Virus record (IMG/VR): IMGVR_UViG_3300020229_000001
Location: 30,386 to 94,385 of that record
Strand: one strand, 5' to 3'
Length of the DNA stretch: 64,000 nucleotides
Origin: a virus
The position numbers were made by a program, and so were the translations under genes. Under the pieces are notes generated by a model. That model was given only the letters and a program-made list of their open reading frames with translations, ran no database searches and was not told the DNA's origin. Positions 206-62,475 of the stretch are shown here, one piece after another (the stretch's first letter is position 1; the number at the start of each line of letters is the position of its first letter).

Positions 206-1477
206 ATTATTCTTCGTCTTCTCCTTCAGCTTCTTTTCGCAGTTTTTCTGCCGCTTTGATTGCTTTTTCTTTTTCCATCAATTGCTTCATTAGCCCCTTA
301 TTGGGAGACTTAACGCCAGTGAGGTTTGCCTCATCGGCCTCGGACAAGAGTCGCACTGTTTCCCCTTTACGATCCACTTGGAACAAACCTCCAGCTTGGA
401 TGATGTCCAAAGAAAACTTGGCGGCGTCAGCGTAGTCCGCTGGCTCTGCTCCGCTCGTTGCCGCCCCGTACTTGCCAAACAATTCCTTCTCGTTAAACCA
501 CAGGGCAGCCTGCATATCGGCAATGGTAACAACAATCCCGGCTTGAGCAAGCCTAGCCTGAGCCTGCTCCATCGTTGTCTGCTGAAACGCCCGCTCGTTA
601 CTGGCCCGAGGTGCGCCAAGCGGCGTTGTGCGATCCTGCACCCAATTCTTGGCGGCTCTTCGTAATTCGGTTTTTCCCTTGAAGCTGCCAGTTCTGAATA
701 CTTTTTCAAGGTGCTCCGCAAACTCAAGCATCGCGCCGCTGTCTTCTAGTAATTTGTGGAATTCTTTTTTCGACCATCTGGGCGCGTCTTCTCCGTAAAG
801 GTAGGGCTCTTCAACTCCTTTTTTAATGAGCACTCGGTCGGTATATTCCTTGCCTTTTTTGAGCGCCTGATTTCTGTTGTATTCCTCAATCAACGAGTCT
901 TGAAACCGCTCAAATTGATGCCCTTCCTTGAGAGGATCATACTTAAATGAGCGACCAAGAATTCGATTCCACGTTCTGGTATACCAAAGGTCGGCGGTTA
1001 GCGTTGAGTAGTCGCCGTGGAGGTTATTAATGAAAGATCCGATCTTTGGCCCAAAGACCATAAACCCGGTCACCATTTGATTTTTGCCGCCCTCAACAGA
1101 CAGCGGCTCCCCGTTGTAATACAGGGAGGTGTCTTGCTTCAGATTCTTGTTCCAATTTGCAACAGTGTCCGTTTTGAACAAAAGGGCTCGGAGCTGACTT
1201 GGGGTATGCCTTGTCAGCAACTCGTGCAATTTCAGTATGTTGTTTTCAATCGCGGCAGTTTTATCGCCGAATGTGCCATGCAGTGCGGTGACAATTTCTG
1301 GAAGGGTTTTGCCATTTTCTAACATTAGCGTTACCCGAGTTGCCATTTTGCCATTCTCGAAGACGTCGTTGCCCTGAGACGCAATCCCGAGAACCGCATC
1401 GAAAACAAGGCTCTTGTCTGCGTCGTGCTGGGGAGACCCAACCTCGAGCCACGGAAAGAGTTGCGAGTACATTCCCT
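196..1477. repeat. Copy 1 of a ~1.28 kb imperfect direct repeat (copy 2 at ~62719-64000)
   Basis: Same sequence at offset 62,523; 13 aa differences over the 421 aa compared, plus many synonymous changes. Confidence 0.95.
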
Positions 1478-4400
1478 TCATCCGCTTCAGGGCCGCGTCG
1501 TACCATCCAATTGCGTTTGGAGACTTTGGATTCAGCGCGGCCCTCGCCATGTGCTGCTGAACCTCGTCGGCCACAACTGACGAAATGATATCCATCGCCC
1601 TCGGGCTATAGTCTCCGGGCAGGATTACCCCATCACTGGCCGCTCGATTCTGCAACGCATGAATCATGTCCGGGACGGCTGTCTCCCGCTTGCCTGCAAG
1701 CGTGTACGTTGACCTCACGGGCAGGATTTCGGTTCCTGCCAACAGCGGACTGGCGCTCCGGGCCATTGGGTCTACCGGGTACAGCTTGTCCTTTATGTAC
1801 TTGGCGTCGGAGTCACTGAGTCCGTACCGCTTGGCGTAGAGGGCTGGGTCGAAGATGTAGCCTTGCGCGGCTGCTGCCTTGGCGTAGTCGATAAGAAGGC
1901 TATCGATACTTCGTTGTAGTAAGGACTGTCCACCGGAAGTGGCTTGAAGCCAAACCGGGAGAACTCTCTGGTTGTCTCTTCCCTTGAATATTTTTTCAGT
2001 TTCATAAAGCTCTGAGGCTACAATTGTTTCGTATGATTGATCGATTGATGCTGATTTTTGGATTTCACTGAGCTTGCTGGCAAAGTCCTCGGTCCCAAAG
2101 TTGAGTGCCTTGATGCCCTTGCCGTCCGTTGTCGTAGAAACGTCTACGCCAACTTCTCTCGCTTTGTCAAAAGCCAACTTCAACTGGTCGTCGGTGAGCT
2201 TTGTAGAATGGATCAGGTATGCTGCCTGAGTGCCTTCTTTAAGGTCAATTGACGGCTTGTAGGTGATGCCAGCGTCTTGAGCAAAAGCAAGAGTTAGAAG
2301 CTGAGTGATTTGCTTTGCCTTGTCAAACGTAAGTTCAGGATGAACCAAATCAAAAGATGGTTCTACCTTCCCCTGCCACGTTCCTGCAATCGGCCTAATC
2401 TCCAGACCATCAAGGCCAAAGAAGTCTTTTAGTATCCCGTTGAAGCCATCGGATTTCAGAATGTCATGCACTGAGTCTCCAAGCTCTGCCATGCTGCGAA
2501 TTCCAAGCGGATTGGCGGTGAATGGAGCAGGGGTTGCCTTTAGCGACACCTCTTCAAACGACCTGTTTAGCTTTTTGACTTGAGCTTTCCACGCGGCGTC
2601 TTCCGGGCTCATGTTCTGCATCTTTTCCGGGAACTGCGAGCGCATCTCTTCGATCTGGGTGTCGAGCGCGGCAACCTTTTCCGCATAGGCGGCCTTCTTT
2701 GCTTCAAATTCCGCCGTTTTTTCAGGCTTCTTTGCGTTCTTAGCCGCCTCGTCTGCCTTGGCAAGCAACTCAAGTTGGCGTTGTTTTTTAAGCTGCAATT
2801 CGCCCCATGTTTCAACTGCTGCCTTTTGGCCGGAAACCGTTTTAAGCTGATCTCTTAGCTCGGATGCCGTTCTGTAGGTGTAACCGTGCTCACCGGGCTT
2901 GGCTCCAATCACAACGCTGAACATCCCGCGTTCATCAGTGATGGTTTTGGGAAGCGGAGCAATTGACGCAAGAGCAGGCAGACGCTCTTCCTCTTTTGGC
3001 TCTATTTTTATGCCTTCCAGCGCCCCGGGAATATTTTCGTTGTCCGGCATAAACCGCACCTGAGCACCTTCAAGGGCTCCCGAGGCGCTGGGGTCGGTTA
3101 GGAATGGTTTAATTTCGTCGTATTTTTCACGACTGATGGAGCCATTCACCATTTTAGTAAACAGCTTTCGATTAAACGCCTTGATGTCATTGGCATCCGA
3201 TGCATTTGCATAACGCATTGGCACATCGATGACAAAAATGGCCTCCTTTCCATCGGGGCCAAGCCCCGAAACCACATTTCCTTCGTGGGCATCTCGCAAA
3301 AATGTTTTTGCCTTTGGATTGTAGAATTCAAAAAGATTGCCTCTTACTATCCTGAAAAAGTTTCTTTGATTTAAATATGAATCAATTTGGTTAATTGATA
3401 ACGGGTCTAAAATTTTGACGTAAGGCTGCTCCGTGACAACATACGCACCGGGATCAGATCCCGTTACCCTTCCAGTAACAAGGTCTGAAAAATTTCCCTG
3501 AACATTGGCTTCCGATTCCTTTGCTTGATCGTGGATTCCCTTAACGGTGATTTTTGTTTCAGGGAAAAACTCATTGTGCAGTCGAATTCGGTCGAAATAA
3601 TCACCCCAGTTTTCTTCAAACATGGGAATATTTGTCCGCTTTTCAACTTTGCCATTTTCATTTCCAAGAATGACTTGATGCTCGGCCCCTGATTTATACC
3701 CCGACGCCCTCCACCTCTCGAGAAAGTCCCGATGATCCAAAAGCGCCCCGTGCTGGCGTGCTGCATCAACTAGACGGGTGTCTTGCGCTCGCTTTGCTGC
3801 CTCTGACGCACGGCGACTTTCAGTTTCTCCTCGAACCTGTTCTGATTCTGAATCCTTTCCTCTAACGGAACGCTCGAAAACACTTCCGAGATTCTCACTA
3901 GGTGCTCTCGACCCTTGTTTGTTTTGGCTGCTTCCTGCTCTACTAACCTCTCCCTCTCTGCTCTGTCTGGAATTAAGTATTCGTTCATATTCTTCTTTTT
4001 CGGCAAAATCGCCAGATTCTTTAGGATTACCATCAGGCATAAATCGAGCCTGACCGCCTTCCACAGAGGAGCGCATCTCGGGAGTAATGGCGACTTTCCA
4101 GATTTTGGGATTTTCTCCAATCTCTACAACTTCTCCACCTTCTCCGCGTCCCCGGTTGTTAAGCGCAACAACTGCGTGAGAACGGTTGGTGAACGTCATT
4201 GTTGGAGCGATATTTGGATTTCCTTGAATGACGTACTCTTTCTTGCCTTCAACCTCACCCGTTTCAACTTTAGCACCCCATTGCTTGACGTACTTGCCAA
4301 TTTCATTTGGTAGGATTTTGTCGTAAAAGCCTGTCATGCCTTCGCCGCCAATATCAAGGTCTAATCCGTCAGCTTTTGCGTATGCCGTAACCGGATCTGA

Positions 4401-7400
4401 TTGAGAATTGAGGTCAGCAATAAGCTTTTCTGCAAGTGGCTTCCCTATTGTGTCAGCTACCTCCTGAGCAGACAGTCCGGGTTTATTTATTACTGATACA
4501 GGAAGGTTTGATCCATCTGTGTTTTGGTATGCACTGACATGATACTTTCCGTCACCGTCATTTATTAGGTCAATGGCTGAGACATGTTTACTTAGGGAAT
4601 ACCGATCAGCTTGCGCTTCTCCTCCGGTCCAGCCAATCCAATTCTTGCCGTCAGCAACAGCTTTTTGAAGTGCGTGCTTGAATAGTTGAATGGGCCAATC
4701 TTTGCGGAATGGTGCGTCGGCAACGCCGTCTTGACGCATTGCTCCTGCGTTCATTAAGGCTGTCCATTCCTTGCGCTCTTCAGGTGTTGCCGCTTGCCCT
4801 TTTGCTTCAATTTCACGCACCCTATTATAATCGCGAAGTTGTTCATTTTTGTACCCTCTTTTCCTAGCCGCCTGATGCAGATCAGATTGCAACTCTTCAA
4901 TCAGCCTGCCAGTTCCAAAGTCTTGAGTGCGCATATGCGCAACATAGTTTGGAACGTCTGGAAAGTGGCTTGAGCGAAACTCTCCAACTCCAACAACATC
5001 GCTTTCTCCCCTGCCATCAATTCTGGCTTGATCTAATGTGTCATAAGTGCCTTGTTCTCCATCAATAAATTCAACATCAAAAGATCCATCGTTTAATTTT
5101 TTAAATGAAGCAATTGGGTCAATTTCTGTTTTAGACGGCATTCTAAGAACAACCTCTTCGTAGTTTGTGCCGCCGGGAAGCTTGTATTTGGAGTATTGCG
5201 TCTCGTCTTCTCCGTACTCAGAATCGATTTGGTTGGTCTCAGAAACGAACTCTTCCGCTTCTGGTCTACTCATCCCAAACATTTCCATTGCAGATTTCTC
5301 TGCTTCCTCAATTGTGTTAAATTTTGCAGCGCCTCCCCACTCTTCAGCTTCAGAGTAGAACTCGCCTTCAAAGGACTTTGCTTCTCGCATCCTCTGCGTC
5401 TCAAACTTTGCAACGTAACCGTCTTTCAAGAACTGCTTAACGTCATCTTTCGTGACATATCCTTTCTCCGCCTGCGCTGCGTCAATAAACTGATTGATGC
5501 CGCTCCATTTCATTTCGTCAGGCTTCACGCCACTACCCTTCTGCGGGTCCAGAATGCCCCTTATTTGCTCCGCACTGGCCCGATTAGGCATCTTGTTTAA
5601 TAGAACCCGTCCAGCCTTGCTGTAGAACCCGGGGGCGACCTTTGTAGGGTCTTCCTCACGCTCTGGCATGAAGCGAATGCCTGACGGGATTTTGCTAGAT
5701 GCCCACATGCTCCCGCCTTGCGGATCTGGTCTGCCAGTTTCCGTATCAAATAATTTTTCTCTTCGTAATGTAGCCTGTTTTGATATTGGCTCTCCGTATA
5801 GTTTTGTTGCACCAATGCTTTGAGCATATTTTGCAATTTCTCGGTACAAAGCTTCTCCGTATCCTTGTTTTTCAAACCCGGAAGAATTGGCAGACAGCAC
5901 CACCTTCAGGAGCTCTGGGTCATACGGATCTCTAGTGACAGTTGCGCTAGCCGCAACCTTGTTAGACATTTCCGGGTAAATGTAAATGTGCGTGTCTGGG
6001 TCTTCTTCAATTTCCTCAACTCTAGATTTGTATTTTGGCAACCTTGCCTTCATTACGTTCAGCTCTTCTTGAGTTGGTACGCGACGGTATTCATCTTCCA
6101 ATTTCTCAGGTATAAACCGGACCTGCGCTTCTGCTGGCTGAACCGTTGCCTTGATTTCACCAGTGCCTTTTGGGTCGTACTTAGCAGAGACTGATCCCAA
6201 ACCTTTTAGGATACTACCACCGAGCGCAGGACGCTGTTCTTCTTTAGCCTCCTGTTCGGGCATAAACCGGGCCTTGTACGGGATCGGGTACTTATACTCC
6301 GTGTTTGCGTTCTCTTCGGCAGCAGTGTGCGAATCAAGGCGGAATGATTTGATGATCTGGTCAAAGCTAGACTGTTTATCGAGCTTGCGTTCGGATCGGC
6401 TAAACTTGTTCCGGTCTAGGTCTGGAATAGACTCAACGTCGGGCACATTTGGATTTGGTGCGCCGAGCATCTTTTCGTAAATGGTTCGCTTGAGCTTTGC
6501 AACATTTGGGTCTGCATCGAGTCCCTGCCAGCCCGGGACACTTGCGTCGGGGTTCGCAAGGTTCGGAAGCAGCACCGTTCTAAACTCGTTCCAAAATTTT
6601 TGTGTGTCGCCGCCCCAAGGCTCAAACACTCCCTTGGCATATTTCTCATAAAGCCCAACCTTCCTACGAAGGTCGCTAATATCCCAAGCAGTTGTGTAAA
6701 AATTGCCAGCCTTTGAGAGGTGCAATTGCAATGGGACGATCTGCCGAATCTTTGGAGAAAACGCCTGATAGTTGCCTTTGTCATTCAACCGGGAGGCGTA
6801 ATCGATATCAAGCACCGTCCCGTCGCCCCGAGTCATTAGGTCGTCGTACTTAAACAACAGTTCCTTCATTGAGGCTGGAACAATACTTTCAGGAAGTGCA
6901 GCAATTGCCGCACGCTGCGCTGGAGTCATTTTTCCAGTGTAGTGCAGGTCTTCATCATCTTTTCCCTGCCCGCCTTTGATCGCCCGGAACCGTCCCAGCT
7001 CAGATGGATCTCCAGCGTTATCGATGGCATCACGGACCATTTGCACCCGGCGCTTAATATGCGCTACGGTTTCCTTGTTTTTGCGTTCTTTTGGCTTCCC
7101 GGTGGCCTCGTCGTAAGCAATCTGACGTTCTACTTGTACTCGCCCACCGACCGGGACTTCGAGTCCAACTAATTCAGGATGTAATTCTCCAAATCCCCGT
7201 TCCTTGTTTGGAACATTATCCCCAGTCGTATCGTCTTGGTGATAAATCCAACTACCTTCAGATGCGTTGTTGTCAGTTAGGTTAACCGTCTGCACTACCT
7301 TACCATCTGCGTCCGTAACTACAGCCACTGGAATCGTCTCAAATTTCCCTGTGTCCTTAAAATACTTGTTAAGCAACTCTTTTGAGTTTTTTACGTCTTT

Positions 7401-10400
7401 TGGCGTAATGGGCGCAGCCACCGCTTCTCCCGGCTCTGCGTCAGTAAAGTCGCCGTCGTACTTCTTCATCTCCCGCTCGACGTTGCGTATCGCACGCATT
7501 ACCTCAGGGCTGTACGTTGCGCCAACAAGCCCAGAAGTCCACTGTTTGTACACCGCTGGCCCTGCAATTGCGTACAAGTGATTCAACGCAGATTTGACGT
7601 TGTTGCTACTGACACGAGAAGCCAACCAGTTAATTCCTCGCTGCGCTGGAGACTCTGGGTCGCCAAAGAACCTTCCTGCGTGAGCTTCTGCGAGAGTTTC
7701 CTCCCGCATCAATTCAACAATCTTGTTCTTGTTAAAGTCGTTTGCCGCTTCATCCCAAACTCCAGCGGCTTCAGCGTAATCCTGAACTTGTTCTGCTGTC
7801 TTTCCTTCTAAATATTTTTTGTAAAATTTGCCAAACAGATCATCCCGGGACATTCCGGGCTCCGCAGGAGTGATTTGTCGCACATTGCCATTTTCATCAA
7901 CAGCCTCTGTGCCGAATATTTTGTTGAACAAAGGTGCGATCCGCTTGCGGTATTCGTCCTTGCCAAACAAGCCGTGCCCAACAACTTCGTGAGCAAGGAC
8001 GTTTGAGATAGCCTCCCCAGAAAGCTCTGCCTTTTTTAAAGCGTTTTCAACATTCACAAACACCGTATCTTTGGCAGGGTCCATCGTAAACCCGTCCTTG
8101 GCGGTGCCTTTCCCAATCATAATGCCGTCAGCGGTTGGATTCTTTTCTAACGCCTGCTCAATAGTCATTGGTGCTCCAACCCCATTGAAATTAGGGTTTT
8201 CCGTAATCATCTTGTCGATAATTTGGCTAGATGTAAGCAACTCAATGTTCATGTTGCTGTTAGGAGTCAGCACCCCGTTTATGAGGTTTGACACTTTCCC
8301 TAGCGACAATTTAATGCCATCCTCGAACGCTTGCCGGGCTTCCGGGGGCGCAACTATGTTTTCCTGATGGAGTCGATAAGCAAACTCGTAATCTGCTTTG
8401 GCCTTAGCCGCTTCAGGTGTATTTGCCCCGTTCACCATTTCGGCAAAATGCGTTTTCTGAGCCCGATCAAGGCGTTTTTCAGACTGCTTGATGACCTTGT
8501 CCCAGTTCAAATTTGTGACATTTTCTCGAGATTCTGGGCTTAACCCAAGCATAACCCTTTGAGCCTGTCGCATCTCTGCGTCTCGGTTCATTTTGTTGCG
8601 AATCGGATCATTCCCTACTAATCCTCCGAGAACCTGCCCGTGAATAAATCCATAGGTCGCAAACTCAGCCCACATTTGTGCAAACTCTTGAGCGTCCTTG
8701 TCTTCAAGTACTCCCATTGCAACCATCATTGGCAGCATTGACACGTTGTGTTGCACAAAGACGTTTGCGTTTTTTTCAATAAAATCCAACGCTTTGCCGC
8801 CACCAGCTTTTTGCGACCAGTTCAAAAATCGTTGCACCTCAGGAGATGCTGATTCCATTTTTTCTAACGCCTCAAAGCGGCCCAATTCAGCGCCGGATAA
8901 CCTTCCAGCTTTAAGTAGCTGCTGCCCAAGGCGAGGCGCAGCCGCAATCGCCTTACCAGCAAGCTGAATTCCAAGCCCAGTTCCTGCGCCTTTTAACGCC
9001 CCGGCCAGCGGATCATCAGACGCCAATGCACCAGCGCCAGCGCCAAGTAGAGTCGACCCGGCATATTTTACAGGTTTTGGAAGGCTTTCAAAGGCTGTTT
9101 TAGACCGATCAATGGTGTCTGCAATGTTGCCAAGTGGCTTTTCGAGCCACCCGGGCTGCTCTCGGGCAATTGCCTCCGCTTCACGCTGCGCTTGCAGTGC
9201 CGCGCTATCAGCGGCGTACATAACATTGCGAGCCTCACCAGTCTTTCCAGCCGCTCTCAACCCTCGACCTATTTGCTGACCTAACATGCTCAAATCTCGC
9301 ACAACTGCCCCGCCCAACCCAAACACGTTTAATGGCGATGTCATGGCAATTGCGCCAACTTGTTCAGGGTCTTCCCGTAGACGATTGGCTTCTTTTATTT
9401 GAGCTTGCACCCCAGTTTCAGCGGCTGCTTCTGCTTGCAATCGACGGTTAGCCCTCGCTGCTTCAATATTGCCTCCAAATCCAAAAACAGCGTCTTCTGC
9501 TGGGGGCATCAACTTTTCAACAACATCAACCCAGTATTTTTTAACGGCAGGATCTTGCCACAGGTCATCAATTGTTCTGGCCAAAACAGCGGGATTTTTT
9601 TCCCTCTGCATGTGGTCGATATACTTTGCATTCATCCGAGTTGCAAAGTTCTTCCTAGCTTGATCCATTGCTGGAGCAGCCGCAGCTTCACGCAATGCAG
9701 CTTCTTGCTCCATAGAGATGGCAGGAGCAATTGATGGGTCTGCTAGAGTCCCTTCCGCAGTGGCTTTAGCAATGCCAACCTTAGCCTTGTCCCAAAGCAT
9801 AGCTCTACCTTCAGAAAAATCCTTTGTTGCCTTTAAAAGGTCTTCTCTAGCCATCAAAAGGGCATCGCCAAACACCCGAGCGGACCGATACGTTTTGTCT
9901 CGGAGCGACAATTCAGCGTCTCGGATTTGCTGTTCGTTTAGTCCCTTTTTTTGCTCTTCAGTGAGCGTTTTGCCTTTCCCGAAATCTTCAGGGCTACCGA
10001 CATACACTGCGCCTGTAAGAGCATCCTTTGCTAGCCTGCCAGCGCCAGCAGCAAGAGGAGGCAAAGACGCCAACATTCCAACCCCGGCCTTCCCTGCGTC
10101 TGCAATTAAATCAAACGCACTTGTATCCTTGTTCCACCTGTAATCGAACAGAGACTGCAACTGCACAGGGTTTTCGGCCATGTTGTACCAAGGAACTGTC
10201 TTGTGTAGCTCCTCAAGGTCGTGCGGGTCGGTGATTCCTTTGAACACCGTTTCCGTAATCCCCTTGCGGGTGTTAGGATCAGTGATTCCAGCGTATGCAT
10301 TAAACTTGCCTGTTGGGCCAACCGGGACTGGGGCAAACTGCCCAGAGCCGAGTGCTCCGCTGCCAATCAACGAAGACTGTTCTGGAGGCGCAGTGCTGCC

Positions 10401-10613
10401 GACCATTTCGGGACGAAACATCTCGCCGCCACCAGACAGCGTGCCACCAGAAGTCTGCATTCCGGGGGATTCCCCCTTGAATGCAGCTAGAATTTCTTCA
10501 TCAGAAATGCCTTTTGCCTCTTCCTTGCTGTAAATAGGCTGACTGACAGATGGCTGTTCTCCCTTAAACGCAGCCAGAATTTCTTCGTCTGAAATCTTTG
10601 GAGTTTCAGCCAT
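207..10613 (-). CDS. Giant (3468 aa) polyvalent virion/ejection protein
   Basis: Last gene of the ejection cluster. Contains zincin HEVVGH (7974-7991) plus EETLAE, a GNAT-like QGYGEALY, an EELQSD-type polyvalent-protein domain, a Kinase-PolyVal-like domain (GAEHQV..RIRLHNEFFPET..EQPYV..DAHEGNVV..FVID) and a C-terminal GPKIGSFINN..TADLWYTR..DMQAALW domain. Confidence 0.85.
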   Translation of the reverse strand: MAETPKISDEEILAAFKGEQPSVSQPIYSKEEAKGISDEEILAAFKGESPGMQTSGGTLSGGGEMFRPEMVGSTAPPEQSSLIGSGALGSGQFAPVPVGPTGKFNAYAGITDPNTRKGITETVFKGITDPHDLEELHKTVPWYNMAENPVQLQSLFDYRWNKDTSAFDLIADAGKAGVGMLASLPPLAAGAGRLAKDALTGAVYVGSPEDFGKGKTLTEEQKKGLNEQQIRDAELSLRDKTYRSARVFGDALLMAREDLLKATKDFSEGRAMLWDKAKVGIAKATAEGTLADPSIAPAISMEQEAALREAAAAPAMDQARKNFATRMNAKYIDHMQREKNPAVLARTIDDLWQDPAVKKYWVDVVEKLMPPAEDAVFGFGGNIEAARANRRLQAEAAAETGVQAQIKEANRLREDPEQVGAIAMTSPLNVFGLGGAVVRDLSMLGQQIGRGLRAAGKTGEARNVMYAADSAALQAQREAEAIAREQPGWLEKPLGNIADTIDRSKTAFESLPKPVKYAGSTLLGAGAGALASDDPLAGALKGAGTGLGIQLAGKAIAAAPRLGQQLLKAGRLSGAELGRFEALEKMESASPEVQRFLNWSQKAGGGKALDFIEKNANVFVQHNVSMLPMMVAMGVLEDKDAQEFAQMWAEFATYGFIHGQVLGGLVGNDPIRNKMNRDAEMRQAQRVMLGLSPESRENVTNLNWDKVIKQSEKRLDRAQKTHFAEMVNGANTPEAAKAKADYEFAYRLHQENIVAPPEARQAFEDGIKLSLGKVSNLINGVLTPNSNMNIELLTSSQIIDKMITENPNFNGVGAPMTIEQALEKNPTADGIMIGKGTAKDGFTMDPAKDTVFVNVENALKKAELSGEAISNVLAHEVVGHGLFGKDEYRKRIAPLFNKIFGTEAVDENGNVRQITPAEPGMSRDDLFGKFYKKYLEGKTAEQVQDYAEAAGVWDEAANDFNKNKIVELMREETLAEAHAGRFFGDPESPAQRGINWLASRVSSNNVKSALNHLYAIAGPAVYKQWTSGLVGATYSPEVMRAIRNVEREMKKYDGDFTDAEPGEAVAAPITPKDVKNSKELLNKYFKDTGKFETIPVAVVTDADGKVVQTVNLTDNNASEGSWIYHQDDTTGDNVPNKERGFGELHPELVGLEVPVGGRVQVERQIAYDEATGKPKERKNKETVAHIKRRVQMVRDAIDNAGDPSELGRFRAIKGGQGKDDEDLHYTGKMTPAQRAAIAALPESIVPASMKELLFKYDDLMTRGDGTVLDIDYASRLNDKGNYQAFSPKIRQIVPLQLHLSKAGNFYTTAWDISDLRRKVGLYEKYAKGVFEPWGGDTQKFWNEFRTVLLPNLANPDASVPGWQGLDADPNVAKLKRTIYEKMLGAPNPNVPDVESIPDLDRNKFSRSERKLDKQSSFDQIIKSFRLDSHTAAEENANTEYKYPIPYKARFMPEQEAKEEQRPALGGSILKGLGSVSAKYDPKGTGEIKATVQPAEAQVRFIPEKLEDEYRRVPTQEELNVMKARLPKYKSRVEEIEEDPDTHIYIYPEMSNKVAASATVTRDPYDPELLKVVLSANSSGFEKQGYGEALYREIAKYAQSIGATKLYGEPISKQATLRREKLFDTETGRPDPQGGSMWASSKIPSGIRFMPEREEDPTKVAPGFYSKAGRVLLNKMPNRASAEQIRGILDPQKGSGVKPDEMKWSGINQFIDAAQAEKGYVTKDDVKQFLKDGYVAKFETQRMREAKSFEGEFYSEAEEWGGAAKFNTIEEAEKSAMEMFGMSRPEAEEFVSETNQIDSEYGEDETQYSKYKLPGGTNYEEVVLRMPSKTEIDPIASFKKLNDGSFDVEFIDGEQGTYDTLDQARIDGRGESDVVGVGEFRSSHFPDVPNYVAHMRTQDFGTGRLIEELQSDLHQAARKRGYKNEQLRDYNRVREIEAKGQAATPEERKEWTALMNAGAMRQDGVADAPFRKDWPIQLFKHALQKAVADGKNWIGWTGGEAQADRYSLSKHVSAIDLINDGDGKYHVSAYQNTDGSNLPVSVINKPGLSAQEVADTIGKPLAEKLIADLNSQSDPVTAYAKADGLDLDIGGEGMTGFYDKILPNEIGKYVKQWGAKVETGEVEGKKEYVIQGNPNIAPTMTFTNRSHAVVALNNRGRGEGGEVVEIGENPKIWKVAITPEMRSSVEGGQARFMPDGNPKESGDFAEKEEYERILNSRQSREGEVSRAGSSQNKQGSRAPSENLGSVFERSVRGKDSESEQVRGETESRRASEAAKRAQDTRLVDAARQHGALLDHRDFLERWRASGYKSGAEHQVILGNENGKVEKRTNIPMFEENWGDYFDRIRLHNEFFPETKITVKGIHDQAKESEANVQGNFSDLVTGRVTGSDPGAYVVTEQPYVKILDPLSINQIDSYLNQRNFFRIVRGNLFEFYNPKAKTFLRDAHEGNVVSGLGPDGKEAIFVIDVPMRYANASDANDIKAFNRKLFTKMVNGSISREKYDEIKPFLTDPSASGALEGAQVRFMPDNENIPGALEGIKIEPKEEERLPALASIAPLPKTITDERGMFSVVIGAKPGEHGYTYRTASELRDQLKTVSGQKAAVETWGELQLKKQRQLELLAKADEAAKNAKKPEKTAEFEAKKAAYAEKVAALDTQIEEMRSQFPEKMQNMSPEDAAWKAQVKKLNRSFEEVSLKATPAPFTANPLGIRSMAELGDSVHDILKSDGFNGILKDFFGLDGLEIRPIAGTWQGKVEPSFDLVHPELTFDKAKQITQLLTLAFAQDAGITYKPSIDLKEGTQAAYLIHSTKLTDDQLKLAFDKAREVGVDVSTTTDGKGIKALNFGTEDFASKLSEIQKSASIDQSYETIVASELYETEKIFKGRDNQRVLPVWLQATSGGQSLLQRSIDSLLIDYAKAAAAQGYIFDPALYAKRYGLSDSDAKYIKDKLYPVDPMARSASPLLAGTEILPVRSTYTLAGKRETAVPDMIHALQNRAASDGVILPGDYSPRAMDIISSVVADEVQQHMARAALNPKSPNAIGWYDAALKRMKGMYSQLFPWLEVGSPQHDADKSLVFDAVLGIASQGNDVFENGKMATRVTLMLENGKTLPEIVTALHGTFGDKTAAIENNILKLHELLTRHTPSQLRALLFKTDTVANWNKNLKQDTSLYYNGEPLSVEGGKNQMVTGFMVFGPKIGSFINNLHGDYSTLTADLWYTRTWNRILGRSFKYDPLKEGHQFERFQDSLIEEYNRNQALKKGKEYTDRVLIKKGVEEPYLYGEDAPRWSKKEFHKLLEDSGAMLEFAEHLEKVFRTGSFKGKTELRRAAKNWVQDRTTPLGAPRASNERAFQQTTMEQAQARLAQAGIVVTIADMQAALWFNEKELFGKYGAATSGAEPADYADAAKFSLDIIQAGGLFQVDRKGETVRLLSEADEANLTGVKSPNKGLMKQLMEKEKAIKAAEKLRKEAEGEDEE

Positions 10614-43623: not shown

Positions 43624-43903
43624 CTTGAGTTGGAGTAAATATCTTGTTGCTTATGGTTTCAACCGCTCTAAGACCGCAAAAACCAAGAAGAAAAGCAGCA
43701 GCATAACCATAGTGTGGATCTGAGTCTAAGTGTGAAATCTTGAGCAATAACGGAGTCACATAGTTGGCCGACGCAGCGCCTCCTACAAGCGAAGCAATCG
43801 TGGCAATAAGGCTTTGCCCAGAAGTCTTGCTGCTCATCAGTACACTTCCAAACAAACCCGCAATCGCGAGTCCAATATCAATTCCTTCTTCCTTTAAGTT
43901 CAT
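43589..43903 (-). CDS. Holin-like membrane protein (3 TM)
   Basis: AGLFGS..SLVGGAASANYVTP..AAAFLLGFCGL pattern. Confidence 0.55.
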   Translation of the reverse strand: MNLKEEGIDIGLAIAGLFGSVLMSSKTSGQSLIATIASLVGGAASANYVTPLLLKISHLDSDPHYGYAAAFLLGFCGLRAVETISNKIFTPTQDEPINRNQRRR

Positions 43904-55934: not shown

Positions 55935-56813
55935 TTATTGTAGTGACTGAAGTTTAACTATCCCTGCCTTAATGCGGTCAGCTGGAAGGGTTTCAATTGG
56001 GGTTTTGGTATACGCAACCTTCTGCTCTTTTGTGAGCGTTGAGGTGGTGAGTAGTGCAGTGAATTCCTGACGCAACTTTGCTGGAGAATTGGCGTCAACT
56101 GCGGCTGCAAACTCTTCGTAAGACAGGTTCAACGTCTCTGGCAGTGAGAGGCGATTCTTGGCATCCCAGCCCGGGCTCCAACAAGTCTGAATGATGCGGC
56201 CTCCACCGATAGTCTTGTCTGGCTTGCCCCCAGCGGACTTAGTTTTGAACACCTCGTACACGGCGAACAGGCAAGCGTCTGGCCATTCCCGGAGAATCCC
56301 GGTGAATCCCTTGTGCCCCTTCATCTCGTAACGGTCCCACTGCTCGCCCCCGGGCTGAGTAAAGGTCTTAATCTGGACGTGGCTGAGAAGAATGATGCCA
56401 AACTTCTGGCGTTCTCGGAGCGTGTCGAGTTTGTTGAGCAGTGCAGACAGCTCGAACTCGGCAACCTTGTAGCCTTTGCCAAAGCCGTAGCTTTCAATGT
56501 TAGTCTGGCCATCTCTTTTACAGACGTACCCGTGGATAGACCGCTCCAAGGAGTCTGTGGTGTCAACTACGAGGGTTTTGAAATCCCCGGGATTGGTGGT
56601 CAACTCATCGACTGTGGCCAGCGTGTCACCAAACGAGTCAGGGGTGATGCGGGCGACATGATCGAGCCCAGTGAGCCCTTGCTCTTGGCTGATAAACAAC
56701 GGCGATGGCGCTGCTGCTCCAAATGTTGACTTACCGATGCCTTCTGGACCGGAAAGAAGGATGCGTGGGGGGAGGGATTCTCCGCCTCGTTTAATTTTTG
56801 CTAGTATGCTCAT
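55935..56813 (-). CDS. Sak4-like AAA ATPase (single-strand annealing)
   Basis: GPEGIGKST, TLVVDTTDSLE, YGFGKGY, ILLSH, WDAKNR. Confidence 0.88.
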   Translation of the reverse strand: MSILAKIKRGGESLPPRILLSGPEGIGKSTFGAAAPSPLFISQEQGLTGLDHVARITPDSFGDTLATVDELTTNPGDFKTLVVDTTDSLERSIHGYVCKRDGQTNIESYGFGKGYKVAEFELSALLNKLDTLRERQKFGIILLSHVQIKTFTQPGGEQWDRYEMKGHKGFTGILREWPDACLFAVYEVFKTKSAGGKPDKTIGGGRIIQTCWSPGWDAKNRLSLPETLNLSYEEFAAAVDANSPAKLRQEFTALLTTSTLTKEQKVAYTKTPIETLPADRIKAGIVKLQSLQ

Positions 56814-56823
56814 ATGTATCGAT

Positions 56824-57879
56824 TTACTGGTTAACTACGAAGTGCCGCAGAAACTCTTCTGCCGCGTTGTGGAAGCCTGTGCCAAGAGCAAGGGCTTCGT
56901 CAATCTCTCCCAGCCTTTTTGTTGGCTGTTCGTAACGGAGAAAGTGATACCTGCTGCACTTGCGAAGTGCCGTCAGGCGCGAGTTGGTCAGGAGCTGTTT
57001 TTCTCCTTCCTTGAGGGTCAGCTCTGCGTGTTTTGTCGCAGGTCCGAATCGGATGTTGTCCACGGTCGCCCGGCCTGCGCACAGGTCGTAGAACTCGCAG
57101 GTTCCGTACTGCGTGCACGCTCCCGGGTTTCGTGGCCATAGGTTGCGATTGCGGAAATACAGAAGTTGCTGGGACATGGCCCACGCATCCCCCATGTACT
57201 CAAGCAGGTCGTTGTCGGTGCGTCCGACTTCCTTTACAGCAAAGTAAGAATCCCGCTTTTCATTGATCTCACCAAGCGTCCGGGCGGATAACTCCTCGAG
57301 GGTCTCTGGCCGGGTTTGTAAGACGTACCCGGCGTCAGTGTCCGCCGTCTGTCTCCACTTTTTTCCGTCCTTTGTGCGTACCCGCTCCCCGGCTGCGTCG
57401 AGGACGATCTTGACGCCCTCCTCGTCCAGCAACGGAATGTTGCCAAGCTTATACCCGGGCTTGCGGACAACGTCGTACACGACCGTGTTGGCGTCGATGC
57501 CCCGGGAGCGCAGGCTTAGGATGTACTTGCTGATCTGGGTGTCCATTGTGAGACGCCCCCAATACATCGAGTCGGCGTCGATTGAGTCGCTGGTCGTTTT
57601 GTGCTCGAGGACCTTGAGCACCCCGGTCTGCTTGTGACGCAGGACCCCGTCGATCTTCCCGGCTTCGAGGAAAGACCGAGAGGGAGCCTCGGTCTCCGGG
57701 TTTAGCAGTGGGAACGTGAATTCCGACTCCACTTCAAGAACGTCGTGCGCCTCGAGCACCGGGATGAATGACTCCACCCAGCCCATGAATAGGCCCCGGG
57801 CTTTGGCCAGCGCCACGTCGGTTGCCGGGACCCGGGAAAGACCGCCAGTGACTGCGGTACGATAGATTGATGTGTCCAT
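56824..57879 (-). CDS. Cas4/AddB-like PD-(D/E)XK exonuclease, circularly permuted
   Basis: VESEF, GKIDG, EHKT, QISKY, C-x5-C-x5-C; the normally N-terminal NSRL..CSR..GTGFH segment is at the C-terminus. Confidence 0.85.
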   Translation of the reverse strand: MDTSIYRTAVTGGLSRVPATDVALAKARGLFMGWVESFIPVLEAHDVLEVESEFTFPLLNPETEAPSRSFLEAGKIDGVLRHKQTGVLKVLEHKTTSDSIDADSMYWGRLTMDTQISKYILSLRSRGIDANTVVYDVVRKPGYKLGNIPLLDEEGVKIVLDAAGERVRTKDGKKWRQTADTDAGYVLQTRPETLEELSARTLGEINEKRDSYFAVKEVGRTDNDLLEYMGDAWAMSQQLLYFRNRNLWPRNPGACTQYGTCEFYDLCAGRATVDNIRFGPATKHAELTLKEGEKQLLTNSRLTALRKCSRYHFLRYEQPTKRLGEIDEALALGTGFHNAAEEFLRHFVVNQ

Positions 57880-57880
57880 G

Positions 57881-58498
57881 TTAGATTTCGGTTTCTGCTT
57901 CTTCTGTTTCGATTAATTCGTCGTCTCCGTCAACCCGGCGATTGGCAACAAGCTCTGGGTAGCCGCAAGTGATTAGGTTTCTACGGAGCGTTGTGCTGCT
58001 CAACAACTGGTTGTTTTTAAAACCAACGACCCACTGGTCAAACTTGGAAAACTGGCCCTTCTCCCCGGCAATAGTGTCGCCCACGATGTCCCACCAGATA
58101 ACGCAAGCTGTGTGCGCTCGTTCTGGCTCTGGAAGAAAGCCGACTTGCCATACCCATTCCTGCACCTTTCTGCCTTTTTTTAGGACACTGAACTCTTGAG
58201 TGGCATAATAAAGCGCCTCCTCTTCCAATGTGTAAGGTCTCCACGAGTTTTCATAAATTGAGTCACAGACTCGATAAAGCGCTAAAAACTGACTTGGACT
58301 TAATTTAAGTTCCGCTACTTCGGCATCCCGATTTTTAGGCTCCATGCGATTGATAAGCACAACCCTTCTTAACATTGAGGTGGCGCTGAAGTTCCCGGCA
58401 ACCGCTTTGAGCATTGAGACCTGTTTTGCATCGGACCCGGTGACGGCCTGTAGCAGACCTCGGGCAATTTTGCTGTCCCACTTTTTGAGTGTTTTCAT
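57881..58498 (-). CDS. Hypothetical protein
   Basis: 205-aa packed ORF. Confidence 0.6.
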   Translation of the reverse strand: MKTLKKWDSKIARGLLQAVTGSDAKQVSMLKAVAGNFSATSMLRRVVLINRMEPKNRDAEVAELKLSPSQFLALYRVCDSIYENSWRPYTLEEEALYYATQEFSVLKKGRKVQEWVWQVGFLPEPERAHTACVIWWDIVGDTIAGEKGQFSKFDQWVVGFKNNQLLSSTTLRRNLITCGYPELVANRRVDGDDELIETEEAETEI

Positions 58499-58713
58499 TA
58501 TTCAAGACGTGAAAGGGTTTCGATTGCTGTGAAGAAGGTGATGGCGAGAAGCGCCAGAATGGCGAGGAACTCGTATGGGGTTTGCGCCAGCCTGTAGAGC
58601 CAGTACACGTCTGCTGCGCCAAGGACGAGCAGCGCCACAACAAAGGGCAGTGGGCGCTCTGGAGCCCGGTCTGCGGGGCTGCTGGGGAGGAGAATGCGAG
58701 GTGGTTTAGACAT
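58498..58713 (-). CDS. Small 2-TM membrane protein
   Basis: Two hydrophobic helices; TAATG overlap with the next gene. Confidence 0.6.
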   Translation of the reverse strand: MSKPPRILLPSSPADRAPERPLPFVVALLVLGAADVYWLYRLAQTPYEFLAILALLAITFFTAIETLSRLE

Positions 58714-58746
58714 ATGATCGATTAATTTTAATTATTACACTCTGAC

Positions 58747-58797
58747 GGCCTCGTCAGCGCCCGCATTACGGGTCGGACCCCCGGAGGGGTTTCGGCC
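58747..58797 (-). ncRNA. Type II hammerhead ribozyme
   Basis: Minus strand: GGCC GAAA CCCC-UCCG-GGGG UC^ CG-A-CCCGU-AAU-GCGGG-CG CUGACGA GGCC. All core nucleotides and three stems are present; predicted cleavage between 58776 and 58775. Confidence 0.88.
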
Positions 58798-58970
58798 TAG
58801 GCTTTACGCACACTGTAGTCAATACCTTCTAGCCCCCCGTTTTCACTAAGGTGCTGGCGGGCCAACTTCCTTGCGTCCTCGGAAGTTACGGCCTCAACTG
58901 TGAAACTGCCATTACAAGAGGAAGGATAGTAGCGGCAAGAATAAGAGCAGATGAAGGATGCGGCGTTCAT
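58797..58970 (-). CDS. 57-aa early protein
   Basis: Manual translation MNAASFICSYSCRYYPSSCNGSFTVEAVTSEDARKLARQHLSENGGLEGIDYSVRKA; A-rich leader. Confidence 0.55.
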   Translation of the reverse strand: MNAASFICSYSCRYYPSSCNGSFTVEAVTSEDARKLARQHLSENGGLEGIDYSVRKA

Positions 58971-59102
58971 TGGATTAGTTTATTTTTAAGGTTCACTGCG
59001 ACCGACGAAATGAACTTATTCCACATCCATTTTACTGGCGAGCAATTTGTGAATTTATTTTCAGATCTTTTCCACAAAAACACACAAGTGGCTAGTTTTA
59101 AA

Positions 59103-59276
59103 CTAGTAGCGATAGGTGGTTTTTGCCCCTTTTTTCTTTATTGGTGTTCCCAAAACAGGCCCGCGACCTTGAATTTTGTCAAAATTGGCGCGAAACTTTA
59201 CGCGGTCTACCGGGCGAGCTTCATCTCCTTTTCCTGCGCCGTGTCCAAACTGGTTAGATGCAATTGGTTGCGACAT
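59103..59276 (-). CDS. 57-aa basic protein (GAGKGD..RPVD..F..NFDKI type)
   Basis: Manual translation; pattern recalled from small phage proteins. Confidence 0.6.
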   Translation of the reverse strand: MSQPIASNQFGHGAGKGDEARPVDRVKFRANFDKIQGRGPVLGTPIKKKGAKTTYRY

Positions 59277-59463
59277 GCGGATCGATGTTAAATGTGATGT
59301 TTTTTTCTATCAATAGCTGATCAGAACGAAAGTGCCGAATGCGCCCGTCATGCAGCGCAACGGCCCAAACGTCGTTTGCAAAAGTCCCTGATTCAGAGAC
59401 ATATATTGCCATGCCGTCGCCTAGATCCGTTTTCACCGGGATGGGGCGTCTGAATTCAAGCAT
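59254..59463 (-). CDS. Small hypothetical protein
   Basis: PIPVKTDLGDGMAI..NDVWAV..GRIRHF; TAATG overlap. Confidence 0.6.
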   Translation of the reverse strand: MLEFRRPIPVKTDLGDGMAIYVSESGTFANDVWAVALHDGRIRHFRSDQLLIEKNITFNIDPHVATNCI

Positions 59464-59630
59464 TACTTACAGCAGTTTTTTGTGGGGATGCCCTGCATTC
59501 CCTTTTTGAGACCGCCAATCTTGCCGTTTAACTTTTTCTTTGTCTTCGGACTTAATCTGCTGTTCATCAACTCGTTTTGAGTCTCTGTGATTTCGATATG
59601 GCGCTTGAGGTGCGGATTTTTGTGGGTCAT
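59463..59630 (-). CDS. 55-aa Lys-rich protein
   Basis: Manual translation MTHKNPHLKRHIEITETQNELMNSRLSPKTKKKLNGKIGGLKKGMQGIPTKNCCK; coupled by ATGA and TAATG overlaps. Confidence 0.55.
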   Translation of the reverse strand: MTHKNPHLKRHIEITETQNELMNSRLSPKTKKKLNGKIGGLKKGMQGIPTKNCCK

Positions 59631-59815
59631 AACGTGGGATCTTTGCGGGAGGAAAGCGCATGCCTGCGCAGCAAGTCTGTGCGTTTTGGTCTAGTCTCTT
59701 TGCTCCCGCCAGTTTCAGACACGGCGATTGCGTGAGCGTGACTGCGAGGAGCCATCGCTTGTTCCGCGCCTTTAATTGGCTTATGCGCTCGAGTGAATTG
59801 ACTTTTAGATTTCAT
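59627..59815 (-). CDS. Small basic protein
   Basis: 62 aa, Arg/Lys/His-rich. Confidence 0.5.
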   Translation of the reverse strand: MKSKSQFTRAHKPIKGAEQAMAPRSHAHAIAVSETGGSKETRPKRTDLLRRHALSSRKDPTL

Positions 59816-59842
59816 GTCACAAGACAGCAACTTTAGCAGGAG

Positions 59843-60049
59843 TTAAGGCGCAGCCGAAAGAGCAGCGGCAAGCTGTTCTTGCTGTTCTTTTGGATGTTGA
59901 ATTATATCTAGAAGCGTAGACGCAAGTGCCATCCGGAAAGCAAATTGCCCAGATTGTTCAATGACATCTTTTAAGATTTCTTCGGCGGTTACTTTGGAGA
60001 GATCAATGTTTTTTATGGCCTCAAGGATAGGATCAGTTTTATCGGACAT
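59843..60049 (-). CDS. Small acidic helical protein
   Basis: 68 aa, TAATG overlap. Confidence 0.55.
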   Translation of the reverse strand: MSDKTDPILEAIKNIDLSKVTAEEILKDVIEQSGQFAFRMALASTLLDIIQHPKEQQEQLAAALSAAP

Positions 60050-60276
60050 TATTTTCTTCTTTTAGGGAGTCGCTTTGCGGGGTTTTTTTCTTTGCGGTCA
60101 AGAGGTTTGGAATCTGATGCGCCGGGCATTATCATCTTTTTGTTTTTTGGCATACTCTCCACAGGAGCAGCCATAGGCATGGATTTCTTTTTAGAGCCTC
60201 TCACAGCATCCAGCCCAATGTTAATTTCGGGAGATGCAAACTTTAGCGTAGCAGCAGATGATGATGGTGATTTCAT
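60049..60276 (-). CDS. Small Lys-rich protein
   Basis: 75 aa, ATGA overlap. Confidence 0.55.
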   Translation of the reverse strand: MKSPSSSAATLKFASPEINIGLDAVRGSKKKSMPMAAPVESMPKNKKMIMPGASDSKPLDRKEKNPAKRLPKRRK

Positions 60277-60500
60277 TGGAAAATCTCTTTGTAGAACTCG
60301 TCTGCCAAATCAAACGCAAGCGGAATTCGGTCTTCGATGTCGGTGGTAAGGTCCGGGTTGTTGATCAGGGCGTGAAATATAAGAAGCGCAGCAAGCTCTC
60401 TGATCCCCACTCCGGAATTGGCTTTCTGGGGAGGATTTACGGCATCCCCGGGATATGGCGCAACTGGCATTACTGGAAAGTTTTTTGGAATGTATGACAT
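60273..60500 (-). CDS. Small hypothetical protein
   Basis: G.GIRELAA..AL..NP..AFDLAD pattern. Confidence 0.6.
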   Translation of the reverse strand: MSYIPKNFPVMPVAPYPGDAVNPPQKANSGVGIRELAALLIFHALINNPDLTTDIEDRIPLAFDLADEFYKEIFQ

Positions 60501-60503
60501 AAA

Positions 60504-61214
60504 TTAGAACGTCCTAGTCTCCCACAACTTCCGAGCGCCCGCAACATCAATGCTTGACTTCCCGATGCGGTCATTCACTGCGTTATGCAGACAAACTCCC
60601 CACGCAAAGAATTCACCAAAGTCAGCAGGGTTAAGTGCCATCCATTCTTTAAGGTGTGCCTCGCACGGGCAACCGTCAAACGGGAGAGAAGCCACCCAAG
60701 CCTCAAGCCAGTATCGCATGTCACCAAACGGGATGCATGTGGCATCAGCCCGGAGGCTATAGAGGTGCAGCTCCGCCCAGTACCGGGCTCCCTGCATAAG
60801 AATGCGGCTCTTTTGAAGTTCGCTACGCTGCTCAATCCGTTCAACCTCATTGCCGACATCAAACACCCATTTGTCGTGCGTTTCCCAGTCCGTGGACGTG
60901 GCTATTGCGGCTTCCCGCTCCAATGCCATTGCTACGACGTGCTGACGGTGATACGGGGCAGCAGGGTCGTCCCCGGGCTCCTCGAGCTTGGGGTTGTCGG
61001 TGTCAAACTTGGTCACCTGCTCATCGGTAATGCCGTCGCGTTTGCACAAAAACGCTTCGACCATCTCGTGGATTGCCACGAGCAGGACCGAAACGTCCCG
61101 GCCACCGTACTCTGGGACCTTGAGCATTAGTGCTCCATCGGCCAACCATTCCCAGTCGCCAGCCGTTGGGTAACGCATTGCGCTGGGGTCTACAGTCTTA
61201 ATTTCAATCCTCAT
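60504..61214 (-). CDS. Fusion: zincin-like domain plus Erv1/Alr-like sulfhydryl oxidase domain
   Basis: N-half AIHEMVE..EPGDDP.APYH.QH..E; C-half YWAELH..LPFDGCPCEAH..FAW..LHNAVNDRIGK. Confidence 0.7.
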   Translation of the reverse strand: MRIEIKTVDPSAMRYPTAGDWEWLADGALMLKVPEYGGRDVSVLLVAIHEMVEAFLCKRDGITDEQVTKFDTDNPKLEEPGDDPAAPYHRQHVVAMALEREAAIATSTDWETHDKWVFDVGNEVERIEQRSELQKSRILMQGARYWAELHLYSLRADATCIPFGDMRYWLEAWVASLPFDGCPCEAHLKEWMALNPADFGEFFAWGVCLHNAVNDRIGKSSIDVAGARKLWETRTF

Positions 61215-62475
61215 CGAATGTTGATAGCCCGATTTCTTTCATCTTATCAATTTGCTCACGCACCTGCTCAATCGCCCCGGTCTTTCCCTCGAGGTAGTAC
61301 CCCTCGACAAGCTCGGCGTTCTCGAGCGCATGATCAAAAGCTTCTTCTAGCGTGTTTCCAAGTCCAACAACTGCGCCAATTTCCGGGAGTCCGCAGGATT
61401 GTGGAATAACAAAGTACCCACGGTCATCTTTGTAAATATTCCGCAATTTAACGTAATCTCGGATCTCTTCAGGAAACCGCAGCGGTTGCCAATTCTTGTC
61501 TGCAAAGCTGCTATGAAGCATGATCTCCGCCCCGTACTTAGCAACGGGCTCCGGGTTGATCACAACTCCGTTTGCCCCGGCCCAGATACACTCGGCCAAA
61601 TTTTTGTACTGTTCTTGGTAAAGCTCATTCGGAGGACTAGGAGCCCGAGCGCAGAAATCGATCATGTACGGCTTGTGGTCAGCCCCAATGCGGATCTCGG
61701 ACGAGAAAAAACCACGATAGCCGTAAGCCTGAAACACCGGGACCATGCGGTCGTTGAATCGGCGAAGAGGTTCCGGGATGTCAGCGTAATTCTTGAATAC
61801 TGATGCAAATCCGCAGTCTTTAACTTCAATGCCGCTAATCAGCGTCTTGGGAAATTGGCCGTCAATTGTCCAAGCATCGGTTCCAAATTCAATCTTATCG
61901 TCGAGAGCCTCTTCGACCGTGAATTCGATGATGTCTTTGAACCTACCAAGACCCCACTCAACCTCGTCGAGTTTAGGCTCCACAAGGTCGTAGGAGAGGC
62001 TGTGGAACGTTTCAAACGTCCCACGGTACTTGTCAGTCTTGACGTAGACATTGGGGTGGTCTTTAAGGAACTCTCGAAGATCCGCCATGCCCTTGACGTG
62101 AGTGTATTGACCCACAGGCATGTCTATCGCCTTGAGGATCTCTTTCATGCCCTCCCGGTTTAACTCGAGGCATTCCCCGGTCCGAGACCCCCAGACAACC
62201 TTGCCCATTTTGAGCAAGTGTTCCTGTTCCCATCCAAAATAGATGTCCGGGAAGCAGAACAGGTCAATCTCGTCAAAGTGTGGGCCGTAGATTGAATCTA
62301 CAAGCTCCAGCTCTTCAATGCCTGTGCCGATTTTGGCGAGGTTTAGCCTCGGAAAAGCAGACTCCCACGGGACGTAGTAGTACACTTTCTTGTACGTCTT
62401 CGCGAGCTTGATTGCCAACTCGCAGAACAACCCGTTATCAACAACGAGGCAAACTACGTCTTTAGGGTCTTTCAT
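61204..62475 (-). CDS. PurD-like ATP-grasp ligase
   Basis: VWGS..LELNR..K..DMP, VYVK, VEEAL..IE, GYRGFFS..YMIDFCARAPSP align with GAR synthetase motifs, but the GPNTGGMG loop is missing. Confidence 0.8.
   Translation of the reverse strand: MKDPKDVVCLVVDNGLFCELAIKLAKTYKKVYYYVPWESAFPRLNLAKIGTGIEELELVDSIYGPHFDEIDLFCFPDIYFGWEQEHLLKMGKVVWGSRTGECLELNREGMKEILKAIDMPVGQYTHVKGMADLREFLKDHPNVYVKTDKYRGTFETFHSLSYDLVEPKLDEVEWGLGRFKDIIEFTVEEALDDKIEFGTDAWTIDGQFPKTLISGIEVKDCGFASVFKNYADIPEPLRRFNDRMVPVFQAYGYRGFFSSEIRIGADHKPYMIDFCARAPSPPNELYQEQYKNLAECIWAGANGVVINPEPVAKYGAEIMLHSSFADKNWQPLRFPEEIRDYVKLRNIYKDDRGYFVIPQSCGLPEIGAVVGLGNTLEEAFDHALENAELVEGYYLEGKTGAIEQVREQIDKMKEIGLSTFDED

Follow-up and report, generated by a model that had tools for sequence, protein, structure and literature searches.

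A type II hammerhead ribozyme with an apparently core-masking tail between two small genes of a lake-water virus

The ribozyme and its gene neighbourhood

The stretch of DNA analysed here, referred to as the window, comprises the right-hand 64 kb of a 94,385-bp record from an uncultured lake-water virus, and all of its genes lie on the minus strand. An 83-nt gap between a 57-aa and a 71-aa ORF is occupied by a type II hammerhead motif, which reads from 58799 to 58742 on the minus strand (Table 1). Along this strand, its elements follow one another in the order UAG/GGCC, GAAA, stem III, GUC, stem I, CUGACGA, GGCC and a GUCAG tail; the core, consisting of CUGACGA, GAAA and GUC, is complete and arranged in the correct order for the type II permutation, and fold prediction caps stems I and III with loops, leaving stem II open. 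The 57-aa ORF terminates with the codon UAG at 58799-58797, the G of which is at the same time the first base of stem II. The original prediction of a complete type II hammerhead starting at the stop codon of this ORF is thus borne out in all core bases, in the three helices and in the overlap with the UAG; its coordinates proved to be exact, with the motif on the minus strand, and the 5'-OH end that it placed at 58775 agrees with the cut that we predict between C58776 and C58775.

Table 1. Features of the hammerhead locus, listed from 5' to 3' on the minus strand
Feature	Positions	Strand	Basis or remark
Conserved non-coding block, 130 nt, upstream of the 57-aa ORF	58971..59102	-	Shared with L004, L005 and L008
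57-aa ORF, UAG overlapping stem II by one base	58797..58970	-	ORF list; homologues in L141 and L143
Stem II, 5' strand GGCC	58794..58797	-	Partner 58750-58747; 2 of 4 pairs covary, all cells paired (67 copies)
Core G12 A13 A14 and A15.1 (GAAA)	58790..58793	-	Invariant in 67 copies; aligned to the RF02276 consensus
Stem III: A15.1:U16.1 and four C:G pairs, loop UCCG	58777..58790	-	3 of 5 pairs covary
Predicted cleavage site after C17 (58776), 5'-OH on C58775	58775..58776	-	GUC position in the RF02276 and R1 alignments
Stem I: 6 bp, bulged A58773, pentaloop UAAUG	58758..58775	-	6 of 6 pairs covary; loop fits U-N-A-N-G
Core C3 U4 G5 A6 C7 G8 A9 (CUGACGA)	58751..58757	-	RF02276 and R1 alignments; invariant in 67 copies
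Alternative anti-core hairpin CUGACG/CGUCAG, loop AGGC	58742..58757	-	Minimum free energy (MFE) fold; excludes stem II and the folded core
Stem II, 3' strand GGCC; loop and closing pair of the alternative hairpin	58747..58750	-	Folding
Core-masking tail GUCAG	58742..58746	-	Pairs with C3-C7; first tail base covaries with N7
71-aa membrane-like protein, next gene	58498..58713	-	Conserved in L004, L005, L008 and L191

The start codon of the 71-aa ORF (AUG at 58713) lies 28 nt past the tail and is preceded by an A/U-rich leader without a Shine-Dalgarno-like run. This gene, for a membrane-like protein, is followed by a 205-aa ORF and by genes for an exonuclease, a Sak4-like annealing protein, a DUF1376 protein and an IstB/DnaC-like ATPase. 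The ribozyme therefore lies upstream of recombination and replication genes, as had been proposed, given that the exonuclease, the Sak4-like protein and the IstB/DnaC-like ATPase are all found downstream. The 57-aa ORF was also taken to be the first early gene, a reading that finds no support here, as this strand carries at least ten further ORFs upstream of it, extending to the end of the record. The one hint toward such a reading is the conserved non-coding block in front of the 57-aa ORF (58971-59102); it holds the single-copy motif TCGTCGGTCGCAGTGAA, approximately 25 nt ahead of the start codon of the variable small ORF that comes next, and is a possible candidate for a phage-specific promoter or operator. 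Scans for sigma-70 promoters and terminators near the site remained at chance level, with no terminator on the minus strand. PHROGs and Pfam returned nothing for the 57-aa and 71-aa ORFs, the 205-aa ORF found no relatives when used as a query in viral contigs, and a megablast search of 56000-62000 against GenBank phages gave no match.

Two further ORFs on the minus strand of the window deserve mention. The 3468-aa ORF at 207-10613 carries a Kinase-PolyVal domain (Pfam, residues 2274-2464) and probably encodes a giant protein of the polyvalent type found in phages and conjugative elements; since it has this kinase domain only and no PHROG match, we dropped the idea that the stem III hairpin is a promoter for an N4-type virion RNA polymerase. 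The product of the 236-aa ORF at 60504-61214 ends in a C-terminal Erv1/Alr sulfhydryl-oxidase domain (29.3 bits, just above the cut-off), which is unusual for a bacterial phage. The record of the window itself (G000, 94 kb) is linear and rated complete, as is G002, the record of a relative with a 91% identical exonuclease (L006), which has 60.6 kb and direct terminal repeats; the two are about 34 kb apart in size.

When relatives were collected via the neighbouring exonuclease, two hammerhead copies were found in L004 and one in L008, and none in L005, L006 and L009. The exonucleases of L005 and L006 are 91-93% identical to that of the window, yet these relatives are without both the 57-aa ORF and the ribozyme, indicating that the ribozyme is dispensable. 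Homologues of the 57-aa ORF occur in L141 (75% identity) and L143 (62%), directly followed in both cases by a hammerhead with different, compensated stems. These homologues (L141:2843-3010, minus strand; L143:5262-5423, plus strand) lie in contigs that are otherwise unrelated, and both of their hammerheads bear a tail; the joint occurrence of ORF and ribozyme in unrelated contigs indicates that they travel as one cassette. The ORF/ribozyme junction, searched for as an exact pattern in metagenome contigs, gave 0 matches. The ORFs located 5' of the hammerheads in the window, in L004 and in L008 encode small proteins that are mutually unrelated and, judged by these neighbours, the ribozyme sits at the boundaries of variable small-gene cassettes.

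This setting recurs more widely. Approximately 85% of about 190 distinct type II phage hammerheads (L010-L362) have the stop codon of the preceding ORF at a distance of -1 to +6 nt from stem II, often as a UAG|G overlap, and the next ORF starts at a median of 27-31 nt after the hammerhead core; we did not find this closeness of the stop codon to stem II reported. Two observations in other lake samples concern the integrity of the element itself. In X4 and X7, between flanks that are 95-99% identical, 648 nt replace the 35 nt between GAAA and CUGACGA (58757-58793), which is most simply read as two hammerheads flanking an extra cassette, and in this variant the ribozyme halves coincide with the breakpoints of gene-cassette gain or loss. 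A 469-nt contig from X7 shares stem I, core and tail with the window (58738-58773; 2 differences in 36 nt) and differs in stem III (GCCC...GGGC) and in its flanks. Individual hammerheads thus look mosaic, as if recombined inside the ribozyme.

Conservation of the hammerhead and of its tail

Searches of the whole window with Rfam at gathering thresholds gave no match. At relaxed thresholds, the Hammerhead_II model RF02276 aligned to the site from end to end (per-genome E 3e-4), and the Rfam check that accompanied the original prediction thereby ended below the curated threshold, with 25.2 bits against 37 bits, on account of the short stems and the missing pseudoknot tail. The same model produced a second weak match at 43824-43874, which has no GAAA, lies inside a coding region and was set aside as a chance match. 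We then relied on a covariance model, R1, built from 58 other phage copies with the window copy and its identical twin in L004 excluded. R1 scored the site at 70.7 bits (E 2.8e-16), and this was its sole match in the window and in the entire 94-kb record. A rule-based scan, demanding the core, a stem III of at least 4 bp, a stem I of 5 bp or more in which one bulge was tolerated and a stem II of at least 3 bp, likewise located 1 site in the real window and found the motif in 1 of 400 first-order Markov shuffles (64 kb, both strands).

Pattern scans of IMG/VR uncovered many well-formed type II hammerheads among the matches listed, in many cases two to seven on one contig. When 67 copies were aligned, standard pairs made up 98.8% of the cells of the three helices, with changes on both sides in 11 of the 15 helix pairs. 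The covariation score of the helices amounts to 0.665, compared to 0.139 for shuffled partners, a value that none of 500 shuffles reached, and sliding the helix partners by one to three columns makes the pairing collapse. A corresponding scan of prokaryote genomes returned, among the matches listed, mostly chance hits and well-formed copies at 3 loci (in Nocardioides, in one MAG and in a Polyangiaceae MAG), so that no host was inferred. By its pattern of conservation, the element is a structured RNA with every catalytic base intact, and the segment from 58799 to 58742 is very probably a genuine self-cleaving hammerhead ribozyme.

Directly after stem II, the window copy continues with a tail complementary to C3-N7(-G8), which places it in a subclass of phage type II hammerheads that we define by 5-7 nt of such complementarity. 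Together with C58747, the bases GUCAG (58746-58742) pair with core positions C3-G8 (58757-58752) to form a 6-bp hairpin. That this 3' flank forms a hairpin with the core, at the expense of the active fold, had been proposed from the start, and the hairpin is indeed part of the MFE structure. Complementarity of this kind exceeds chance: in a sample drawn blind to the tail, 5 of 33 distinct hammerheads had an anti-core helix of at least 6 bp, compared to 0.5 expected from shuffled tails.

The variable core position N7 offers a more direct view of the tail, as its partner changes along with it. Where the facing tail base was left free in the search, copies with U7 carried A in 35 cases, G in 1, and never C or U among the matches listed. 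C7 copies, to which the window copy itself belongs, carry the facing G in at least 58 distinct cases; the complete IMG/VR census contains 3 well-formed copies, 2 of them distinct, in which C7 faces a base other than G, each time as C7:A. A7 with a matching tail U was absent from the matches listed in the IMG/VR scan with a free facing base. G:U wobbles occur in the anti-core hairpin, 9 at G8 and 1 at N7, and in five further copies (L031, L077, L268, L312 and L349) complementarity is kept in shifted registers or via the stem II strand within the helix. Since N7 and the tail covary, the anti-core hairpin has in all likelihood been selected as an RNA structure, and since stem II covaries too, both alternative folds appear to be maintained. 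Sister hammerheads with the same loop I are often without a masking tail, indicating that the tail is unnecessary for basic function. One lineage with nearly identical stems (L314, L348 and L547/L548) displays the N7/tail pairs U7:G, U7:A and C7:A, which are possible intermediates on a compensatory path from U7:A to C7:G.

Two folds and their possible role

Nearest-neighbour calculations place the two folds of the window copy close together, at -22.9 kcal/mol for the hammerhead and -25.1 kcal/mol for the masked state. Over 104 distinct copies, the masked-minus-active difference is -2.6 +/- 1.0 kcal/mol, a narrow range of a size that tertiary contacts outside the model could offset. In the equilibrium ensemble, the masked state accounts for 0.91-0.99 and stem II for at most 0.001; without a tertiary contribution of about 3 kcal/mol, the ribozyme could thus be inactive most or all of the time. 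When the chain was grown from the stop codon, the hammerhead was the MFE structure for 3' ends from 58748 to 58743, and the masked state took over once G58742 was added. The predicted 3' cleavage product consists of stem I and the masking hairpin, directly adjacent without a linker, with a free energy of -16.4 kcal/mol. Adding 30 nt of upstream coding sequence gave a different MFE structure, in which the end of the ORF pairs with stem I; we set this fold aside, because ribosomes would occupy the end of the ORF, and the ensemble still favours the masked hairpin.

As the best overall explanation we favour, with moderate confidence, a genuine hammerhead that bears a selected masking tail and alternates between two states; as for its role, the balance tips slightly toward a tail that serves as an attenuator before the cut and as a product lock after it. 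For catalysis, kinetic order and biological benefit, we infer the following course of events. The polycistronic message would be cut after C58776, splitting off a small upstream message whose 3' end would be the stem III hairpin carrying a 2',3'-cyclic phosphate; in the message for the membrane protein, exonuclease, Sak4-like and replication proteins, the new 5'-OH end would lie at the foot of the stem I hairpin. As the tail is transcribed last, the active fold should form first, remaining the best fold only while the last 5-6 nt are missing; such a head start in transcription is short compared to typical hammerhead rates. Once the tail has emerged, GUCAG and the last C of stem II may pair with C3-G8, dissolving stem II and the catalytic pocket, and this slightly more stable masked hairpin would then compete with the active fold and limit or slow the cutting of the junction. 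After a cut, the masking hairpin would capture the freed core, preventing the 3' product from re-associating with the 5' product, and the downstream message would begin with a 5'-OH, two stacked hairpins and an A/U-rich leader up to the AUG. Regulated self-processing of the message and a protective 5' hairpin on the product, initially presented as alternatives, are both possible.

The hairpin might instead act only after cleavage, as a structured 5'-OH end that resists 5'-end-dependent decay and that also prevents leftover G/C-rich ribozyme sequence from base-pairing with the A/U-rich leader of the gene that follows. Emory, Bouvet and Belasco reportedly described in 1992 that 5'-terminal hairpins stabilise bacterial mRNAs, and the two adjacent hairpins predicted for the 3' product, with the next start codon at a fixed short distance, a median of 31 nt past the core, would suit such a function. 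The competitor moreover lies 3' of the ribozyme, a placement avoided in engineered designs that need a dependable off state (PMC7192461). However, any hairpin would protect an end, and pairing with the catalytic bases would be unneeded; stem II, with 4 bp only, should allow the products to part unaided. In addition, the masked state is predicted to be more stable already in the uncut RNA, which implies interference before cleavage too. We therefore regard a purely post-cleavage function as unlikely.

A second possibility is that translation gates the switch. A ribosome terminating at the UAG would unwind GGCC-GAAA and the 5' half of stem III, leaving the core masked, so that messages with a translated ORF would be spared and idle ones cut; the reverse would apply if 30S binding at the downstream start opened the tail. 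The geometry is suggestive, with the one-base overlap between stop codon and stem II in the window, the end of the tail 28 nt before the next AUG and, in 92 of 105 tail-bearing hammerheads, an upstream stop within the range of -1 to +6 nt relative to stem II. This closeness is equally common without a tail (67 of 83 other hammerheads) and may reflect tight gene packing; it does not, therefore, explain the tail, and no comparative signal ties the tail to translation. Gating by translation thus appears improbable to us.

Still less probable is a chance resemblance, or a defunct relic devoid of cleavage activity. Its score below the Rfam threshold, its single genomic copy, its absence from close relatives and the predicted dominance of the masked state would be in keeping with decay, but the motif arose in only one of the 400 shuffles, the independent class model matched it at E 2.8e-16, the catalytic bases are all intact, and orthologous as well as paralogous copies show compensated stems. 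Lastly, the reading of CTGACG-N4-CGTCAG as a DNA-level or transcription signal, a protein-binding palindrome or a terminator with an incidental overlap of the core, can appeal to a perfect 6-bp inverted repeat and to the fact that a palindrome would likewise make N7 and tail covary, but it is hardly tenable, since the G:U wobbles and the shifts in register and loop size, intolerable for a protein site, favour an RNA helix, no T-run follows the repeat (no U-run in the RNA after 58742) and the terminator scan made no minus-strand call here, and in more than 100 unrelated phage contigs the ribozyme core already dictates one half of the repeat.

Returning to the two-state ribozyme, compensatory changes preserve the masking tail in well over a hundred phage contigs, implying that cutting is not simply constitutive and that an off state is held within about 2-3 kcal/mol of the active fold. 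Phage hammerheads with such a tail would thereby gain a testable control mechanism. More tentatively, the tail could be a one-shot co-transcriptional timer and, in addition, the invariant ribozyme halves perhaps recombination joints for small-gene cassettes. With a timer, cutting of each junction would be confined to the brief time before the tail appears, or to periods in which the tail is held open by a ribosome or 30S subunit; if this were true, polymerase speed and translation would set a processed fraction specific to each junction, and hammerheads in phage operons would obtain a regulatory logic that has long been missing. For the tuning of genetic tools built on ribozymes, the tail would provide a natural part of 5 nt. 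Within the phage of the window, the element is ordinary in kind, a single accessory copy on a variable small ORF.

Comparison with known hammerheads

Hammerheads are known whose cleavage is held back by a competing structure. In viroids and the satellites of plant viruses, the alternative folds are long-range rod or branched structures of circular RNAs, which serve replication and ligation. The device in the window is like them in that a competing structure prevents mistimed cutting, and differs in being a local 5-nt tail in the mRNA of a DNA phage. Alternation between active and inactive folds has been described for satellite hammerheads such as that of satRPV (cited as ref. 84 in PMC6765202).

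Engineered ribozymes provide a second parallel. Burke et al. are said to have presented hammerhead designs with a 3' attenuator, termed 'TRAP', in 2002. In other designs with competing sequences, a short strand is appended to the ribozyme, and how much is cleaved depends on the difference in free energy between the cleavable and the non-cleavable fold (PMC7192461). The window tail resembles both kinds of attenuated hammerhead in that a short strand pairs with bases of the ribozyme; in contrast to them, it is natural, lies 3' of the ribozyme, pairs with the core and uses a strand of stem II as its loop.

The closest relatives are the type II hammerheads that flank single genes in phages and prophages, where they are well established (PMC3088659); three type II hammerheads have been found to cut in vivo in Desulfovibrio (PMC8782182), and the purpose of hammerheads in phage and prophage operons, known since 2011, has been described as unclear (PMC3088659; PMC6765202). 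Compared to the class of Perreault et al. 2011 (PMC3088659; RF02276), the window copy has the same core, the same permutation and the common setting between small phage genes, with several copies per contig in its relatives. Most copies of that class, however, form a pseudoknot between loop I and the 3' tail, which speeds them up. By eye, no such pseudoknot of at least 4 bp adjoins stem II in the window copy, as GUCAGAG has no complement in UAAUG; the bases after stem II pair with the core instead of with loop I, and loop I is a U-N-A-N-G pentaloop. Among type II hammerheads with short loops, this pentaloop has U in 62 of 62, A in 46 of 62 and G in 52 of 62 copies, and the A immediately 5' of stem II is kept in at least 90% of the copies in alignment A1. 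The U-N-A-N-G loop and the conserved A probably form a tertiary contact that replaces the classical pseudoknot. The text of PMC3088659 makes no mention of a core-masking tail or of stop-codon closeness, and we found no description of such a tail in the full-text literature, a search whose coverage lies outside subscription journals. The ribozyme thus belongs to a known class, while the selected, core-masking off hairpin appears to be an undescribed and widespread variant feature of it.
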